Source: an uncultured delta proteobacterium
Lineage (GTDB): Bacteria; Desulfobacterota; Binatia; Binatales; Binataceae
Direction: 5' to 3'
Length of the DNA stretch: 64,000 nucleotides
Assembly: GCA_963794325.1 (NCBI GenBank)
Contig: CAWCDG010000004.1
Span: forward strand, 928,001 to 992,000
Part shown: positions 16,361-44,074 of the stretch, piece by piece
How the letters are laid out: every line of letters begins with the position of its first letter
Numbering within the stretch: position 1 is the stretch's first letter
The notes under the pieces: generated by a model
Database searches by the model: none
What the model saw: only the letters and a program-made list of their open reading frames with translations
Told to the model about the DNA's origin: nothing
Position numbers and translations under genes: made by a program

Positions 16361-17611
16361 CTAAGTCAATAGCGCGTGCACCGCGATCTCCACATGATGC
16401 GTATTGGGGAAAAAATCGAACCCGCGCACGCGATTGATTTTGTATCCCGCGCCAGCTAGCAGGCGGAGATCGCGCGCGAGCGTGGTCACGTCGCACGATA
16501 CGTAAATGACGCTCGGCGCCCGCAGTTTGATGATCGGCTCCATCAGATCGAGCGCACCGGTGCGCGGCGGATCGAGGATGATGACCTCGGGACGATAGCG
16601 CGCGCGATGCAGAAAGTCCGCGGTCGCCGACGCCTTCATTGCGATGAATTGCGCGTCGCGGAACTTCAAGCGCGCCGCATTGCGCGAGGCCGCCGCGATC
16701 GCGCCCGCGTCGTCATCGACACCCGTCACGCGCGCACCGCGTCGCGATGCGGGCAGACTGAAGTTCCCCGCACCGCAAAACAAATCGAGCACCGCCGACG
16801 ATTCATGAATTGCCGCCATCTCCATCACGCTCGCGATCAGTTTCTCGTTCTGCGCGCGATTCACCTGGCTGAACAGATCGGCGTCGACGTCGATCGAAAG
16901 TCCGGGTTCCAGCTCGATCGAAATTGCAGGATCGCCAACCGTCTCGCGATGCGTTCCCGCTCGCAGCACGATTCCCGCGATCTCGTTGTCTGCTTCGAGC
17001 ACGTGGCGCGCGCGACGGATCTCCTCTTCGCTCGCCGGCTTTTTCAGATGTGCGACCTGCACTTCGCGCGCGCCGTCGCGCACCACCTCGATCTCTTCGA
17101 CGCGCTTGCCGAGCGATCGGGCCAGGTGCAACGGCATCCGGATGCCCGCCTCGGCGACCATGCATGAATCGATCTCGACGATCGTGTTGCTGCCCGCCTC
17201 GTAAAATCCAAGCACGCCTTTCGCGCCGACCCTGAGCCGGATTCTCGCTCGATAACCGAACTCGGCCGGCGCCGGCTCGACGAGTCCAACTGGATCGATC
17301 TCGACGCCGAGCGCATGGCTCAACTCGCGCGCGATGACCTCGCCCTTGAAACGCACCTGCGCGCCATAGTCGATATGCTGCCAGTCGCATCCGCCGCATC
17401 GCGGCAGATACTGACACGGCGCGACGCGACGCTCGGCGCTTGCGCTGACGATCTCGCGAATCTTCGCGACGGCATAATCGCGACGCTCCGAAACTATCTC
17501 GACCACCAGCCTGTCACCCGCCACCGCGCCGGGAACCATCACGGCCTTGCCATCCTGACGGCCGACCCCGAACGGGCCGAAGGTCATCGCGCTGATCTCA
17601 ATTTCCGGCAT
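16361..17611 (-). CDS. rlmD: TRAM-domain RNA (uracil-5)-methyltransferase, RlmD/TrmA family
   Basis: N-terminal TRAM; C-x5-CGGC cluster; LDLFCGAG, DPPRTG, YVSC, FFPNTHHVE. Confidence 0.85.
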   Translation of the reverse strand: MPEIEISAMTFGPFGVGRQDGKAVMVPGAVAGDRLVVEIVSERRDYAVAKIREIVSASAERRVAPCQYLPRCGGCDWQHIDYGAQVRFKGEVIARELSHALGVEIDPVGLVEPAPAEFGYRARIRLRVGAKGVLGFYEAGSNTIVEIDSCMVAEAGIRMPLHLARSLGKRVEEIEVVRDGAREVQVAHLKKPASEEEIRRARHVLEADNEIAGIVLRAGTHRETVGDPAISIELEPGLSIDVDADLFSQVNRAQNEKLIASVMEMAAIHESSAVLDLFCGAGNFSLPASRRGARVTGVDDDAGAIAAASRNAARLKFRDAQFIAMKASATADFLHRARYRPEVIILDPPRTGALDLMEPIIKLRAPSVIYVSCDVTTLARDLRLLAGAGYKINRVRGFDFFPNTHHVEIAVHALLT

Positions 17612-17699
17612 GCGCGCCCAAGTTTATTCCCCCTACGCAAGAAGCGCGACGCGCCCTATAATTGTTGGGCGCGCCCGCGCCATTCCACGACCTCACCCG

Positions 17700-20600
17700 G
17701 TGACACCCTTGCCGATCGAGACCGAACTCCGCGACTTAATTGACCGGAATCTCCCAGCGGATTCGGCCCCGCTCGTGCACGCGTTCGCTGATCGGCTTTT
17801 CGCGCGCGCCTCCGCCGATCATCGCGAGCGTGTCCCGGCCAAGCGGCGTCTTGCGCTCGTGCAGTCGGCGTTCGAATTTTTTTCCCTTCGCACCGAGCCG
17901 GTCATCGCGCGAGTCGCAACAGTCACTGGTGACGACAATGACACGCTCACCGTCGTCGAGACGGTCACCACCGATCGCCCGTTCATCGTGGACAGCCTGC
18001 TCGAATATTTCCATCAGCTCGGCGCGGCCGTTCGCACGATTCTCCATCCGGTCATCAAGGTTGCGCGCGATAAGCAGGGGCAAATCGTTTCGTTCGAACA
18101 GTCTTCCTCAAGCGAGCGCGGCGAATCGTTCGTTCACGCGGAACTCGAATTCAACCCGACGGCCGAACAGGCGCGTCAAATCGAGCGCGATGTCATCTCG
18201 ATTCTGACCGAGGTCAACGAGGCGACCGCCGACTTCGACGAGATGACCAGCCGCGCCCTGCAAATCTGCGAGGAGACCGCGGCCATCCGCGAGCTGGTCG
18301 AGGTCCGCGACCTCTTGCGATGGCTGGTCCAGGGCGGCTTCGTATTCCTCGGCTTTCGCCGCTACCTTGTGACCGGCGACGACGGCGCCGCTCGATTGGT
18401 ACTCGATCCCGGAACCGAGCTCGGCATCATGCGCGAGGATGACGAGTCGCGGTTTCGCAGCTCGGTCCCGCTCGACGAACTCTCACCCGCGCGACGAAGG
18501 CTGTTCTTCGAAGGACCGCCGCTGGTGATCGGCAAGACTCTCACCGAGTCGCACGTACATCGCCGCCGCCCGATGGACAGTGTCTCGATTCGGCGCGTGG
18601 ACGGATTCGGCCGCGTCGTCGCGTTCGACAATTTCGTCGGGCTGCTCACCTCGAAGGCCTATGCGGAAGAGGCGCAACACATTCCCGTTCTGCGCGCGAA
18701 GCTGCGTGAGGTCCTTGAGTCCGAGGGCGCCGCGCCCGGCTCGCACGATTACAAGGAAATCGTTTCCGCCTTCAACAGCTTTCCCAAGGACGAACTGTTC
18801 CGCGCGCCCGTCGCCGAATTGCGCGCGCAGTTGCGCCTGATCCTCGACGTCAAGAGCGAGGCCGCCGTGCGGCTCTTCATCGCGCCCGACCTGCGTCACG
18901 GCAACGTGATCGCGATGGTCGTGATGCCGCGCGAGGCCGGCTCCGCCGATCTCAGCCGGCGCATCCAGGACACTCTCGCCGCGGCGCTCCACGGCACGCT
19001 GGTCTATTTTCATTTGGGGCTCGGCGAGGGATATACGGCGCGCCTCCATTTCTGTTTCGTTGCCGATCCGCCGAAGACTTCGGTCATTCGCAGCCTCGAG
19101 ACCGCGATCGCCAACCTCGCCCGGCGATGGGACGATCGGTTGCAGGAGCAGTTGGTCAGAAAATTCGGACCAAAGCGCGGTCGCACGCTGGCTGAGCGAT
19201 GGGCCGGAGCGTTCGGCGCCGAGTATCAAGCGGCGATCGATGTGGCGCGCGCGGTCGGTGACGTCGAAGACCTCGAAAAATTGATCGCCGACGGCCGCGA
19301 TTTCATCGTCGAGGCCGGGCCTCACGCATCCGACGGTCACGCCGACGGGCGAAGCGACATCCGCATTGTCGGCCTCGGCGACGCTCCGAAGCTCTCCGAC
19401 CTGATGCCCACGTTGCAGAACTTTGCGATCGAGGTGCTGTCCGAGGACGCGCACGAGCTGCGTCCCGCGCACCGACGGCAAGGTGACGCGCGCATACCTG
19501 CAGGTTTTTTCCGTGCAGGGCCCCAACTCGCAGCCGTTCGCCAAATTTCCCGGCGCAGTGCTGATTGCCGACGCTATCGCCGCCGTGCGCAATGGTCTCA
19601 CCGCGGACGACGCCCTCAATGCGGTCACTCTGACCGCGGGACTCAGTTGGCGCGAGGTCGCGCTGCTGCGCGCGTATCTCGTCGCCACGTTTCAGATGCG
19701 CCTTGCGCCTTCCCGTCTCAGCTTGCAACGCGTGCTATTGCTGTATCCCGATGTCACGCGGTTGCTGTTTGAACTGTTCACCGCGCGCCTCTCGTTTGAC
19801 GATCCCGCGTCGCCCGAAAAAATCGCCGAGCTGCGCGAAGCGTATCTCGCTCATCTGGGCTCGATCGAAAATATTGCTGACGACCGGATCGCGCGCACCT
19901 TGCTCTCGCTGGTCGAGGCTACTGTGCGCACCAATTATTTCTGCGTGGTGCCGTCGCCCGATCCGTACATCGCGCTCAAGTTCGAAAGCGCGCGCATCGC
20001 CAGACTGCCCGACACCGCGCCGCTCTACGAAATTCGCGTCAACAGCCCGCGCATGGAAGGATGCCATCTGCGGCACGGACGCATCGCGCGCGGCGGCATC
20101 CGTTTCAGCGATCGCCCCGACGACTATCGCACCGAGATCCTCGATCTGATGAAGACTCAGACCGTGAAGAACGCGATCATCGTCCCACGCGGCGCCAAGG
20201 GCGGGTTCATCGTCAAGCCGCGCCCCCACCAACAGCCTGATCCCACTGACGGCGTCGATGCTTACAAGACGCTGATCAACGCGATGCTCGATCTCACCGA
20301 CAACCTCACCGGCGACGGGCCGGTGCATCCCGCTCGCGTCAGGGTGCTCGACAACGACGGGCCGTATCTCGTGGTGGCCGCCGATAAAGGCACTGCGAGT
20401 TTTTCGGACATCGCGAATCAAATCGCGATCGGGCGCGGCTTCTGGCTCGGCGACGCGTTCGCGTCCGGCGGCGAGCACGGCTACGACCACAAGAAGCTTG
20501 GGATCACGGCGCGCGGCGCGTGGGAGTCTGCGCGGCGTCATCTGCGCGAGATGGGCCGCGACCCCGACCGCGGCGCGCCGATCACGATGATCGGAGTCGG

Positions 20601-22479
20601 CGACATGTCGGGCGACGTGTTCGGCAATGGTCTGCTGCGCTCGCGCAACTTGAAGCTCATCGCCGCTTTCGACCATCGCCATATCTTCATCGATCCCGAT
20701 CCCGATCCAGCGGCGAGCTTCGACGAACGCAAGCGGCTGTACGATCTGCCGCGCTCGAGTTGGGCAGACTACAATCCCAAACTCATCAGTGCGGGCGGCG
20801 GGGTTTACCGTCGCGGCCAGAAGCGCATCGAGCTGAGTCCGCAAGCGCGCGCCGCACTCGGATGCCACGCCGACGCACTCGACGGCGAATCGTTGATTCA
20901 ATGCATCCTGCGCGCGCCGGTCGATCTGTTTTACAACGGCGGCATCGGCACCTACGTTCGCGCGACGAGCGAGACCGACGCCGAAGTCGCCGACCACGCC
21001 AACGACGCGTGTCGAATCACTGCGCCGGAGCTTCGCGCGAAGATCGTCGTCGAAGGCGGCAACCTCGGCTTTACCCAAAATGCGCGCATCGAGTACGCGC
21101 TAGCCGGCGGACGCATCAACACCGACGCGATAGACAACTCGGCCGGCGTCGATATGTCCGATCACGAGGTCAACCTCAAGATCCTTCTCGAACCCGCGGT
21201 GGCTCGCGGCGATCTCACTTTCGATGCGCGCAACCGAGCGCTCGCCGCATGCGCTGACGAAGTCGCCGATCGCGTCATCTGTGACAATCGCGACCAGGTG
21301 CTGTCGCTCAGTCTTGAACAGCTTCGCAGCCGCACGCAGTTGAACGAGTTTCGCGATCACCTCCAGGCCATCGCGGATCGCGGCATCCTGACCGGGATGG
21401 CGCCAGCGATTCCGCCGCGCGAGGCGCTCCACGAACGCCACGCGCGCTACCCAGGACTCACCCGCCCCGAGCTGGCGTTGACCACCGCATACACCAAGAT
21501 CGATCTCATCCAACGCATAGAGACCACGGTGCTGGTTGACGATTCGTACCTGGTCGGACGCTTCCTGCAGCCGTACTTCCCAGCCTCGCTCGCTGAGCAT
21601 GCGCAGGTCGCGACGCATCGCCTCCGTCACGAGCTGATCGCGACGCGCGCCGTCAACGAACTGGTCGATTTGGCCGGCTCAACCTACGTGTTCAGCTTCG
21701 TGCGCGATCGCGGCGTCGCGGCCGAGGATGTCGTCCGAGCATGGATAATCGCGAACGACGTGCTTTCGATCCACGAGCGCGCCGCCGAGCTCAAGCGCAA
21801 CGCCGACACGATCGCCGCCGAATCGGAGCTGGGCGCATTTCTCGCGCTCGAACACGCCTGCCGCAGCGCGACTGGATGGGCTCTCGGCGAATTGGAGCCG
21901 GCCACGTCGATCGGATCCGCGGTGACCCGCTTCAAGCCGGCATTTGAAAAGCTGTTCGCCGAATTCGAAACGATGCTCGCGGGGGCCGAGCGCGATCGTT
22001 TCGAGCGCCTCTACCGCGAGCTTCGGGCCGACGTGCTGGACGGCGAATTGGCGCATGGCCTCGCGCGCCTGGCTTTCGCGGATCACATTCTGAGCGTGCT
22101 GAGCCTGAGTTTCTCGCGTGAAATCGAACCCGCCAAAGCGGCGCACGCCTACTTCCAGCTAAGCGCTCAACTTAACTTCGCAACCCTCGAAGAGGCACTT
22201 CAATCGATCGGCACCGACGACCGATGGGAGCGGCGGGCCGCCAGCGAACTCGCCACCGAACTTCGCGCCGCGCGCATCGCGATGTGCCGAGCGGTGCTCG
22301 ACGCAATCGCCGACGATCCTGATTTGAAGGTGGATGAATCGATCGAGCAGTTGAAGCGAGTCCGCGCAAACCGTTTCGCCGAAGTCACCAGCCTGTTCGA
22401 CGAACTGAAATCCCTGGCAGCCCCGACCCTCCCAGCAATCCAGGTCACAATCCGCGCTCTCTCGCGCCTCGCCATATGA
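17700..22479 (+). CDS. gdhB: Large NAD-specific glutamate dehydrogenase (one extra C near 19465 splits it in two ORFs)
   Basis: DRPFIVDS; ARGGIRFSDR; KNAIIVPRGAKGGF; YLVVAADKGTA; GVGDMSGDVFGNG; EGGNLG; NSAGVDMSDHEVNLKI. Confidence 0.93.
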
Positions 22480-22516
22480 TGTGCAGTTTTCTTGATCGCG
22501 ATTGTAGCTTTCTACA

Positions 22517-22563
22517 CCGCGATTGTTCCCCTTCCCTCGAGGGAAGGGGTTAGGGGTTAGGTT
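22517..22563 (+). repeat. REP-like repeat family A, left copy
   Basis: CCGCGATTGTT-CCCCTTCCCTCGAGGGAAGGGG-TTAGGGGTTAGGTT (22-bp perfect palindrome + tail). Confidence 0.95.
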
Positions 22564-22938
22564 GCTATACTCGCTCGCAGCGCCTGCCTGATGCGCTCGA
22601 TCACTGCCTCGCTATCGAGCATCGCTTCGTTCGAGAATCGCAGGACGCGTACTCCTCTGTTCAAGATACTTTTGTCGCGCGATTCGTCGTACTGCCACTT
22701 CTCTTCATGCACAGTACCGTCCAACTCAATGGCCAGCTTGGCTGCGTCAATAGAAGTCGACGATAAATCCTTCTATTACCTGCTGACGGCGGAAGTGAAA
22801 CCCGTCGAGACCATTTTTCCGAAGGACCATCCAAAGGCCACGTTCGGCCGGAGTCATTTCGCTGCGCAATCGCTTCGCGCGGGCGAGTATGTCGGGCTCG
22901 ACGTTTTGGCCGCGTACAATTTTCCTGCTGCAAGCCAT
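22557..22938 (-). pseudogene. DUF559 / Vsr-like PD-(D/E)XK endonuclease; apparent 2-nt deletion near 22748 (may be a sequencing error)
   Basis: RAKRLRSEMTPAERGLWMVLR...HFRRQQVIEGFIVDFY then shifted DAAKLAIELDGTVH...YDESRD...GVRVLRFSN; about 127 aa restored. Confidence 0.85.
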
Positions 22939-22959
22939 CAGGTTCGCGGTTTGACCGAA

Positions 22960-23006
22960 AACCTAACCCCTAACCCCTTCCCTCGAGGGAAGGGGAACAA
23001 TCGCGG
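22960..23006 (-). repeat. REP-like repeat family A, right (inverted) copy
   Basis: AACCTAACCCCTAACCCCTTCCCTCGAGGGAAGGGGAACAATCGCGG. Confidence 0.95.
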
Positions 23007-23027: not shown

Positions 23028-24032
23028 TCACGACGCCACCTGCGGCAATTGCGCCGCCGTCGGTTGCATCGATGTCTGCGCGGCAGAATCGACGCTATCC
23101 GCGACCCGCGGCTCTCTCAAATCCTGGTACAGTCTTAATCCCGCCGCGACCAGGAATGCGGTAGTCGCGAAGTTGACGCCGATCTCGGCCAGGCCGACCA
23201 GAAAGATCGTCGTCCCGAGAAATCCCGTCACCACCCCGACTGGCCCGAATAGCAGGCTCACCACCACGAACGCTCCTGCGGCCCACGTGTTGTATCCCGA
23301 CCATACTGCGAGAAACACGACGATCCGTGTCGCGACCTTGAAGAAGCGCTTGCGCATCAGGTCGCGGCTGAACAGCAACGCGTGCCAGCTATGCTTCCCG
23401 TCGTAAATCAGCGCGTACTGCGCGAAGTACAACCAGGTGTAAATCAGCGCGCCGAGGATGATCATCAGCACCAGCGCGATATACGCCCACACTCCAATCG
23501 AGCCGGGCATGAACGTTGACGCTTCCTGGAACAGAAACAGCCCCAACGCCGGCGCGAGCAGTTGCAGAATCGTCACCCACACGAATCCCGGTACAAGTGG
23601 GATCGATCGGCGGTAAACTTCGATCGCCTCGTGGATGATCGTGGGCTCGCGAATTCCCGCCTGGATCCGCTTGAGCGAACACAACGTGACCAGAGTCACC
23701 TGCAGAGTGACCAGCCCGAAGATCAGATGTAGCGTCTTGGTGACCCACGGCGAGTACGGCTGCGGCTCCTGCAGCGGCGCGGGTGTCGGCGAGGGCGCCG
23801 GCTTGCTCGGCGTGTCGGCGCTATCGACCTGTGTGTAGCTGATATTTTGCGATCCCGGCTCGAAGGTCGTCGCCAGCCGGTATTGCAGATTCAACGCGTC
23901 CGGCAGCAGGCACAATGACGCCAGGAGCAGCAACGGCGCCAACACCACCGCCAGCACGGACCAATTTCCGCGCAGGTCGTTCACTGCATTGGCGAGATAT
24001 ATGAAGCTGCTTTTTAGGCGAACTGGATTCAC
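23028..24032 (-). CDS. Multi-pass membrane protein, hypothetical
   Basis: 334 aa, about 6 hydrophobic segments, Pro-rich loop, HALLFSRDLMRKRFFKV. Confidence 0.7.
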   Translation of the reverse strand: MNPVRLKSSFIYLANAVNDLRGNWSVLAVVLAPLLLLASLCLLPDALNLQYRLATTFEPGSQNISYTQVDSADTPSKPAPSPTPAPLQEPQPYSPWVTKTLHLIFGLVTLQVTLVTLCSLKRIQAGIREPTIIHEAIEVYRRSIPLVPGFVWVTILQLLAPALGLFLFQEASTFMPGSIGVWAYIALVLMIILGALIYTWLYFAQYALIYDGKHSWHALLFSRDLMRKRFFKVATRIVVFLAVWSGYNTWAAGAFVVVSLLFGPVGVVTGFLGTTIFLVGLAEIGVNFATTAFLVAAGLRLYQDLREPRVADSVDSAAQTSMQPTAAQLPQVAS

Positions 24033-28876: not shown

Positions 28877-28958
28877 GGTTCCCCTTCCCGCTCGGGAAGA
28901 GGTTACTCCCAACAATCCGGTTCCCCTTCCCGCTCGGGAAGGGGTTAGGGGTTAGGTT
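28877..28958 (+). repeat. REP-like family A, tandem pair (truncated 28877-28905 + tailed 28919-28958)
   Basis: GGTTCCCCTTCCCGCTCGGGAAG(A/G)GGTTA; second copy retains GGGGTTAGGTT; between convergent genes. Confidence 0.9.
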
Positions 28959-30280: not shown

Positions 30281-30327
30281 CCGCGATTGTTCCCCTTCCC
30301 TCGAGGGAAGGGGTTAGGGGTTAGGTT
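30281..30327 (+). repeat. REP-like family A, solo copy identical to 22517-22563
   Basis: 47/47 identity by eye. Confidence 0.95.
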
Positions 30328-31022
30328 CCGATCCGATGCAGCTCCCTGATATGCACGATCTTCTCGTGCTCGACCCACGAGTACCGCTGATGCTGATCGA
30401 TCAACCGCGCCTCGATTCCCGCTGCTCGCGCACCTTCGACATCGATCGAATAAATGTCGCCGGTAAATTTAACTTCGTCGGGACCGACCCCGAGCCGCTC
30501 GAGCGCGATACGAAAAATCCGCGGGTCAGGCTTCGCGACCCCGACGATGTGCGAGTCAATTATCACGTCGAAGTATTTCGCCAGCCCGAATCGCTTCGCA
30601 TCCGCTTCGACCTGTCCCTCTGCATTCGACACAATCGCGAGCTTGTAGCCCGCCGACTTGAACGCCTCGAGCGCCTCGACAATTCCCGGCCGCACGACCC
30701 GCCAAAGCGTCGCCTCGCGATGTATCGCGCCGAACCTTGTCGCGTGCTCCTGAAATTCCTCCTCAGGAATTCCTGCCGCCGTCATCCAGCCGCGAAAGAA
30801 AAGTTCGTATGCCGCCGCAGTGGCCTGGCGGTTCCCGGGGCTCATCAGATGTCGATCGATCGCCGCGCGCCCCGCGTATTCCGCATGCTCGAGCGCGAGC
30901 GCGTCGAGCTTCCTTCCCTCCCGCGAGAACTCGCGCGCCAGCAATTCGAAATCCAGGAACGCGAGCGTGCCGCCAAAGTCGAACAGCAGCGCCTTCAGTT
31001 TTTCCTTCTTCTTCGAGCTCAT
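30321..31022 (-). CDS. HAD family hydrolase
   Basis: FDFGGTL, VSN, KPDPRIF, GDIYSIDVEGA. Confidence 0.92.
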   Translation of the reverse strand: MSSKKKEKLKALLFDFGGTLAFLDFELLAREFSREGRKLDALALEHAEYAGRAAIDRHLMSPGNRQATAAAYELFFRGWMTAAGIPEEEFQEHATRFGAIHREATLWRVVRPGIVEALEAFKSAGYKLAIVSNAEGQVEADAKRFGLAKYFDVIIDSHIVGVAKPDPRIFRIALERLGVGPDEVKFTGDIYSIDVEGARAAGIEARLIDQHQRYSWVEHEKIVHIRELHRIGT

Positions 31023-32266: not shown

Positions 32267-32312
32267 CGCGATTATTCCCCTTCCCTCAAGGGAAGGGGTC
32301 AGGGGTTAGGTT
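32267..32312 (+). repeat. REP-like family A, solo copy (3 substitutions)
   Basis: CGCGATTATTCCCCTTCCCTCAAGGGAAGGGGTCAGGGGTTAGGTT. Confidence 0.92.
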
Positions 32313-44029: not shown

Positions 44030-44074
44030 GCGATTGTTCCCCTTCCCTCGAGGGAAGGGGTTAGGGGTTAGGTT
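44030..44074 (+). repeat. REP-like family A, solo copy
   Basis: 45/45 identity to 22519-22563. Confidence 0.95.

Follow-up and report, generated by a model that had tools for sequence, protein, structure and literature searches.

Inverted BoxC/PIT-type repeats bracket DUF559 nuclease genes: a candidate nuclease-plus-repeat cassette from a Binataceae genome

A 490-bp segment at positions 22517-23006 of a 64,000-nt stretch of DNA from an uncultured delta proteobacterium of the family Binataceae (contig CAWCDG010000004.1, 928,001-992,000; this stretch is referred to here as the window) carries a DUF559 nuclease gene between two exact inverted repeats. The source genome, G000, is a 4.45-Mb assembly that is about 85% complete. 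The pairing of DUF559 genes with inverted repeats is real, lies far beyond chance and is general across phyla. The segment itself is probably a dead copy of a small selfish cassette composed of a nuclease gene and its repeats, a partnership resembling that of repetitive extragenic palindromic (REP) sequences and REP-associated tyrosine transposases (RAYT), with homing-like conversion. An earlier reading of the window, made from its letters alone and called here the sequence-only reading, had proposed a nuclease-plus-palindrome element. The link between gene and repeat held up, while the repeat proved to belong to an already described family (BoxC/PIT/TM_ECO), which had been missed, and the copy in the window proved to be a pseudogene.

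The two arms of the segment, 22517-22563 and 22960-23006, are 47 nt each, are 100% reverse-complementary and are separated by 396 nt. They enclose the DUF559 reading frame as the sole gene, as the sequence-only reading had described, and this frame has 127 codons once two missing nucleotides are restored. Its start codon (ATG, 22938) is placed 21 nt inside the right arm, and the left arm contains its final TAA (22557-22559), also as first described. The 22-nt core of the arm is a perfect palindrome that has six matches in the window at no more than 3 mismatches, against none in 100 shuffles. When folded as DNA, the hairpin part of the left unit forms a 9-bp stem (-10.1 kcal/mol, z = -2.47; the folding covers the hairpin, not the triplex). 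The parts of the cassette are given below; those of the left unit were read from the sequence, and the gene was placed by Pfam and by alignment with intact copies.

22517..22563, plus strand: left repeat unit of the TM/BoxC type, tail towards the gene
22517-22527, plus strand: head of the left unit, CCGCGATTGTT
22528-22536, plus strand: C-rich arm of the left unit
22537-22540, plus strand: loop of the left unit, TCGA
22541-22549, plus strand: G-rich arm of the left unit
22550-22552, plus strand: TTA of the left unit
22553-22561, plus strand: mirror G-rich arm of the left unit, GGGGTTAGG
22562-22563, plus strand: terminal TT of the left unit
22557..22938, minus strand: pseudogene of a DUF559 nuclease (Vsr/EDxHD-like PD-(D/E)XK)
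22960..23006, minus strand: right repeat unit, exact reverse complement of the left unit, tail towards the gene

No transposase or recombinase was found between the arms by an open reading frame (ORF) and Pfam scan of the segment, in which DUF559 was the sole family. Measured against insertion sequences and miniature inverted-repeat transposable elements, the segment has terminal inverted repeats, lacks a transposase and, in agreement with the sequence-only reading, shows no obvious target duplication, its boundaries being blurred by the roughly 85% identity of the relatives.

The association of gene and repeat was scored in 80 DUF559 loci fetched from many phyla, 79 of which were scorable. 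An inverted repeat with a score of at least 16 spans the gene at 61 of the 79 loci and at 2 of 142 shifted controls, which bears out the expectation that stand-alone DUF559 genes are flanked in this manner. Triplex-type motifs occur no more than 250 nt from a gene end at 52 of the 80 loci (on both sides at 34), compared with 8 of 80 for control stretches further out, despite 2.6 times more bases scanned there. Full-text literature searches, whose coverage did not extend to subscription-only papers, found no published report of a DUF559-repeat pairing. Within G000, all seven DUF559 genes are bracketed by their own inverted repeats of 18-136 nt, the sequences of which are paralogue-specific; these paralogues are 34-43% identical to the intact copy on contig C1. 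One cassette (L006, G000:C3:232648-232959) is open in frame with the downstream gene, giving a 694-codon frame that reads through the repeat. We take the downstream gene to be tRNA(Ile)-lysidine synthetase-like, from the SGGxDS motif in its translation.

Neisseria loci L016 and L025 have flanking repeats as the window cassette does, and no inverted pair was scored at the enterobacterial loci L076 and L081. In Escherichia coli, a canonical BoxC and a hairpin lie on the 3' side of ycjD, the BoxC about 165-210 nt away from the stop codon; unlike the window cassette, ycjD thus has repeats on one side only. A duplicated remnant of the ycjD 3' end lies between ycjD and the BoxC copy (locus L108, E. 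coli K-12 1351200-1351430). According to passages of PMC12817139, ycjD occupies the fabI-sapF site exactly in strains that do not have the eefRABCD operon.

The two RAYT-like (PF01797) genes of G000, at C4:286748-287293 and C4:486313-486816, are each flanked by a different repeat (palindromes of the GGCACAGGCTTMAGCCTGTGA and GGGCACGGCGGCCCGC type, one each) and neither by the cassette repeat, and RAYT was accordingly ruled out as the partner of this repeat. A third palindrome, GGCAGGGGTGACCCCTGCACCC, recurs at intergenic sites of relatives.

The seven diverged paralogues, each with its own inverted pair, and the tight two-sided flanking across phyla speak against an ordinary mismatch repair enzyme of the Vsr type, beside which the hairpins would be terminators, insulators or regulatory sites, or common repeats that pile up near horizontally acquired genes. 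This account does agree with the Vsr-like fold and with the placement of family members in many ordinary intergenic regions, often at gene 3' ends. It also agrees with Caulobacter VsrA, a DUF559-domain protein which, in passages of PMC12907096, is tied to an SOS response when the cytosine methylase ScmA is missing. Neither a Dcm-type methylase (PF00145) nor a classical Vsr was found in the 85%-complete genome, the cassette occurs in 10 contexts within one genus (see below), and no promoter or terminator activity had been detected for repeats of this kind in previous work (Maher, cited in Holder, 2015; PMC4666352). The repair account is considered quite improbable.

BoxC/PIT/TM repeats have been known for decades (as orphans since the 1990s), occur in hundreds of genomes and mark unstable loci. 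The TM_ECO repeats are the BoxC/PIT repeats of E. coli, described as intrastrand-triplex repeats in which a loop of 3-6 nt joins a C stem of 9 nt to a G stem, and a second loop of 3 nt (TTA or CCG) leads into a mirror G stem (Holder, 2015; PMC4666352). Passages of the same account state that their loci are rearrangement-prone in E. coli, and that no transposase, integrase or other mobility function had ever been found adjoining them. The window unit shares with them the C-rich 9-nt arm, the 3-6-nt loop, the complementary G-rich arm, the 3-nt second loop (TTA, type A of the published scheme) and a further G-rich arm, the mirror of the first except for a single mismatched triplet. Likewise shared, as far as those passages go, are the intergenic and multi-copy distribution, the occasional inverted pairs and the rearrangement-prone loci. 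In contrast, the window stems CCCCTTCCC/GGGAAGGGG/GGGGTTAGG miss the strict published pattern (CCCTCNCCC N3-6 GGGNGAGGG N3 GGGNGAGGG), to which only 8 matches occur in G000 and which is present beside 16 of the 80 DUF559 loci in other phyla. The window unit also has a conserved head of 7-11 nt, which the published repeats do not, and a nuclease gene between its copies, where the published account, in the same passages, has no mobility gene nearby. Because the stems differ from the strict consensus, the window repeat is classed, on its sequence, as a local variant of the BoxC/PIT/TM_ECO family. No Rfam family covers the repeat (8 loci, E up to 1); the Rfam matches were one thiamine pyrophosphate riboswitch elsewhere and chance matches below threshold, most of them to microRNA models of eukaryotes.

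The G000 assembly holds 224 units of the repeat family, with no control matches. Each unit consists of a head (GCGATTGTT or TCCGGTT) conserved over 7-11 nt, the C-rich arm CCCCTTCCC, a 4-5-nt loop, the G-rich arm GGGAAGGGG, TTA, GGGGTTAGG and TT. A general scan for triplex motifs gave 269 matches in G000 and 1 in the reversed genome. The second G-rich arm mirrors the first with T over A; in the window unit the mirror reading fits 8 of 9 triplets and the direct reading 6 of 9. The mirror relation is also seen in two asymmetric families of G000, which allow it to be distinguished from a direct repeat; the asymmetric type B is an exact mirror. About 200 of the units are solos, and the solo consensus spans the exact extent of the cassette arm. 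Conservation stops 2 nt past the tail, so that the solos are the inverted-repeat unit of the cassette with no gene remnant; their origin as remnants of gene 3' ends was thereby ruled out.

Several further features of the family were recorded. At C6:66305-66487 of G000, as an exception among the units, two type-A units about 180 nt apart surround the last 40 or so DUF559 codons; this is an internally deleted cassette with a 77% match to the window cassette end. Other tails-inward pairs of units in G000 are just neighbouring solos, since they enclose ordinary genes at variable distance. The orientation of units relative to local GC skew gave an odds ratio of 0.54 (p = 0.052), which is no clear trend. 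About 50 G000 hairpins share head and stem with the family and continue as TTACTCC..., not as the G-rich mirror arm (for example window 28880-28905); usually placed in tandem just upstream of a full unit, they form a second unit type that has no tail. Yet another family of the triplex type, CCCCTTTCC...GGAAAGGGG...GGGGGATAGG, has 13-16 copies in G000 (for example at C2:592834 and C2:649942), and no cognate DUF559 gene was noticed for it in the assembly.

DUF559 is a very widespread domain to which no function has been assigned. A profile of the paralogues matches PDB 3hrl, the Neisseria DUF559 protein NGO0050 (E 3e-39), and PDB 3r3p, the catalytic domain of the homing endonuclease I-Bth0305I (E 4e-8); PADLOC gave a match to HEase (E 1.9e-7). 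YcjD and NGO0050 are stand-alone DUF559 proteins of the same family as the cassette protein, and we know of no published function for either; the match to NCBIfam PRK09767 was below the cut-off of that model. Residues E72, D74, H78 and D85 (C1 numbering) are invariant in 43 sequences, an alignment from which 7 loci whose match ran past a stop codon were left out, and the catalytic residues are open in frame in the C1 and G009 copies. Pfam found no NUMOD-type N-terminal domain, and a homodimer prediction for the C1 protein scored 0.02, which speaks neither for nor against a dimer. The cassette resembles the EDxHD homing endonucleases in its homologous catalytic domain, in the E/D/H/D residues and in being a selfish gene polymorphic for presence and absence. 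It differs from their genes in lying outside any intron or intein, in its own terminal inverted repeats and in the hundreds of solo copies.

Weak PADLOC matches to DpdF (E 1.4e-5) and to a methyl-directed restriction enzyme (E 2.4e-4), together with a sub-threshold match to Pfam REase_MTES_1575, would suit a defence or restriction-like nuclease island acting against foreign or modified DNA. The repeats would then be mere recombination hot spots that shuffle the gene, which the rearrangement-prone loci of E. coli reported in parts of PMC4666352 also favour. Such an island is very improbable: it accounts neither for the persistence of one repeat architecture alongside the gene from phylum to phylum nor for repeats that are better conserved than the gene's silent sites, and the cassette has no partner defence genes.

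The gene in the window is broken. Minus-strand ORFs 22747-22938 and 22557-22724 both match Pfam DUF559 (PF04480), at E 6.5e-14 (profile positions 4-49) and E 6.9e-09 (positions 59-108) respectively; with the cut-off at 20.6 bits, the halves reach 52.2 and 36 bits and the intact C1 copy 116 bits. A 2-nt deletion has turned TATTGCGAC of the intact copies into TATTGAC, which makes a TGA at 22747-22749. The frameshift was compared with sequencing runs, as the sequence-only reading had advised, and the same deletion was found in contigs of four runs from one single study (X1 possibly the source sample, X2, X3 and X4 other samples). Contigs of X1, X2, X3 and X4 cover 22540-22987, 22536-22988, 22709-22975 and 22596-22753 respectively, with 0 differences and no indels. 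Because four runs share it, the deletion is not an error of long-read assembly, and the gene is truly broken in the population. One of the X1 contigs has two joints (22562 to 22671 and 22709 to 22961) with short sides of 22 nt; they are probably derived from a different organism or copy and were disregarded. The catalytic E, D, H and D are encoded in the window copy (ELDGTVH...D), yet the frame is broken upstream of them by the deletion, and as a pseudogene this copy cannot be an active enzyme. If any copy acts in G000, the C1 paralogue is the only candidate; the repeats of the C1 cassette carry the other head type.

The cassette was followed through 47 genomes of the genus (the unpublished G019 and G024 enter as two count rows only, with no claim made on them). 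The site between gdh, the gene for an NAD-glutamate dehydrogenase, and the membrane-protein gene to the right of the cassette was inspected in 11 relatives. Empty sites, which the sequence-only reading had said to look for, exist in G007, G001, G018 and G004, with no repeat, no cassette and 0-46 nt between the genes. The gdh site holds a solo unit of another type in G013, other repeats in G003, G016, G023 and G011, and an intact cassette with a 129-codon DUF559 orthologue in G009; the gdh locus of G021 ran off the contig end. Since the empty sites of four relatives have no repeat, the cassette arrived there together with its repeats. The four forms at a second site are a full cassette in G059, a collapsed head-hairpin-head palindrome in G046 and, both of one other type, a gene-less 264-nt doublet in G061 and a collapsed palindrome in G009. 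Twenty-two type-A cassettes were fetched; both units are present in 20 of these, at a spacing of 413-425 nt, and the 20 are distributed over 10 genomic contexts. Loop and head agree between the two units of a cassette in 17 of them. Examined as homing-type alleles, filled and empty forms both exist, with one collapsed palindrome at a cassette site, and so do empty gdh sites without repeats. Gene and repeats are one heritable, insertion-polymorphic and invertible unit that is gained, lost and cut down to gene-less forms.

Both orientations of the cassette occur at the gdh site, one in G000, G049 and G058 and the other in G009 and G052; the G021 cassette is likewise inverted relative to G000. 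This would fit a programmed inversion switch, in which the inverted repeats flip the gene on or off, and parts of PMC9881135 report DUF559 proteins as 14-fold enriched among predicted targets of programmed inversion. Such an enrichment is, however, expected wherever the ends of a gene overlap inverted repeats. The cassette neither contains nor adjoins an invertase, three of the four shared contexts have a single orientation in all members, and 200 solos would be left unexplained, so that a switch hardly deserves belief.

The main rival is a DUF559 gene that is a homing gene only, with repeats spread by some other factor (a host or trans-acting factor, or replication errors at hairpins) and used by the gene as landing pads. 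A free-standing homing endonuclease would cut the collapsed head-hairpin-head palindrome and be copied in from a filled copy by repair. The protein is indeed homologous to I-Bth0305I, a Vsr-like enzyme that, in passages of PMC3239194 which also mention free-standing members, is a stable dimer cutting a pseudo-palindromic site. The collapsed palindrome of G046 lies exactly at the position of the G059 cassette, and repeats persist in genomes without the gene. That palindrome is explained equally well as a deletion between two identical hairpins, and G000 has just 2 collapsed palindromes beside 203 head-hairpin-tail units. The four repeat-free empty gdh sites also count against homing alone, as does the way in which repeat abundance follows gene presence. 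We regard both the general proposal and its detailed form as unlikely, and the repair, defence and inversion accounts as less likely still.

For abundance, a type-A gene was defined as one at least 69% identical to the C1 copy, which gave 19 genomes with the gene (one of them a pseudogene) and 28 without. The median number of type-A units is 104 in the former and 9 in the latter, so that within the genus repeat abundance is tied to the presence of a cognate DUF559 gene, as the sequence-only reading required. The cognate gene is found in 17 of 22 genomes with at least 50 units and in none of 18 genomes with fewer than 20. The Mann-Whitney p = 4e-7 for abundance overstates the case because the genomes are kin. 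Among 14 intact type-A genes (75 pairs), the median dN/dS (nonsynonymous to synonymous substitution) is 0.12 at a median dS of 1.38, so purifying selection acts on the cassette gene, the silent sites of which are saturated. The 21-nt cores of the cassette repeats, compared across these same distances, depart from their consensus at 0-2 positions, and 47-nt units show 100% identity between species with about 85% identity in the flanking genes. Either constraint or homogenisation thus holds the repeat much more tightly than it does the gene's silent sites.

A number of observations weigh against a selfish, self-spreading cassette. Genomes G055, G046, G013, G023 and G054 have 57-127 units without a detected cognate gene, and the abundance association within the genus, being one between kin, may reflect a single shared expansion. 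For the largest solo subfamily of G000, the 67 copies with loop GCTC, the assembled 85% of the genome contains no cassette. The window gene is dead, yet the roughly 52 solos of its own subfamily (loop TCGA) remain near-perfect. Solo units are also retained at orthologous sites in different species, so that any current mobility is conjectural. No clean target duplication was seen at the cassette on comparison with the relatives, which are only about 75-88% identical at the gdh site, so that the insertion boundaries are blurred and no base-exact alignment of empty and filled sites is available. Eighteen of the 79 loci have no detectable flanking repeat, and the Caulobacter phenotype cited above belongs on this side as well. 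Across phyla, the co-variation of protein and hairpin arm, a check named by the sequence-only reading, is weak, at 52.8% versus 49.5% identity (permutation p = 0.0005, a small effect confounded by descent).

The favoured reading, a nuclease-plus-repeat cassette, has its closest parallel in REP/REPIN sequences and RAYT. The two systems share short palindromic repeats, hundreds of intergenic copies and a partner gene flanked by inverted copies. In both, the repeat type is matched to the gene type, gene-less doublets occur and repeat number follows gene presence. The cassette enzyme, however, is a PD-(D/E)XK/Vsr-fold hydrolase and not an HUH Y1 transposase (PF01797), with no covalent intermediate or rejoining, and the cassette repeat has a third, mirror arm that REP lacks. 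A hydrolytic PD-(D/E)XK nuclease cannot by itself join DNA as RAYT does. The analogy drawn by the sequence-only reading therefore stands for the inverted flanking copies and the many solos, with the RAYT genes of G000 carrying other repeats, and fails for the chemistry.

In the proposed mechanism, the nuclease would recognize its own repeat, either as a palindromic duplex or as a folded hairpin or triplex, and would cut or nick at the cognate repeat. Since a hydrolytic enzyme cannot join DNA, the copying itself would fall to the host, through repair, recombination or replication. The result would be a homing-like gene conversion from one repeat copy to another, which would spread and homogenize the solos as well as the cassette. 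That the DUF559 nuclease acts on the repeat is an inference. That it actively spreads the solos is a tentative proposal, and on balance somewhat doubtful. A shade more doubtful is the idea of a new class of bacterial mobile element that has no transposase or recombinase and relies on a hydrolytic nuclease of the Vsr fold to recognize hairpin- or triplex-forming end repeats and to drive their spread and homogenization via host repair.

The cassette is placed between the 3' ends of gdh and the membrane-protein gene. The neighbouring genes, a tandem duplication found by self-comparison and the solo cores of the window are listed below.

19423..22479, plus strand: 3' part of NAD-glutamate dehydrogenase (gdh), left neighbour, with catalytic and C-terminal domains
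22482..22523, plus strand: two tandem 21-nt copies, 76% alike, each ending in the repeat head CGCGAT
23028..24032, minus strand: membrane-protein gene, right neighbour, convergent with gdh
28923..28944, plus strand: solo unit core with loop GCTC, in tandem with a tail-less hairpin just upstream
30292..30313, plus strand: solo unit core identical to that of the cassette; site without a unit in G018
32277..32298, plus strand: solo unit core with 1 mismatch; site without a unit in G007 and with another repeat type in G009
44039..44060, plus strand: solo unit core, exact copy of the 22-nt palindrome, found by core search

Two overlapping ORFs make up the gdh gene, one at 17610-19772 with the N-terminal ACT/helical domains and the other at 19423-22479, and a frameshift is therefore inferred from the assembly sequence within 19423-19772. 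A tandem duplication comparable to that at 22482-22523, comprising the head and about 10-12 nt of outer flank, lies left of the cassette in G009 (locus L097), where the flank sequences differ from those of the window. The head duplication left of the cassette may be a footprint of insertion, of inversion or of an older unit. Among relatives, the solo units at 30292 and 32277 are present, absent or replaced by other types. The tail of the unit at 30292-30313 gives the TAA stop (30321-30323) of a HAD-hydrolase gene (30321-31022, minus strand), the end of which differs from that in relatives without the unit. The C-rich strand of the repeat tail (for example window 30314-30325) holds TAA in two frames, and the tail supplies the stop of an open frame of at least 100 codons in 57 of the 224 units, compared with 3.7% of random control positions.

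For annotation, these repeats are read through as 'PLPxGKGLGVR'-like peptides, supply the stop codons of neighbouring genes and make cassettes resemble inversion switches. If the nuclease does recognize these repeats and drive their spread, BoxC/PIT/TM repeats, which are present from E. coli to candidate phyla, would gain their missing enzyme. The pairing with DUF559 would explain the origin and maintenance of a major repeat family and would give DUF559 a role. It would also add, beside REP/RAYT, a second and mechanistically different case of a repeat family kept by a dedicated enzyme.

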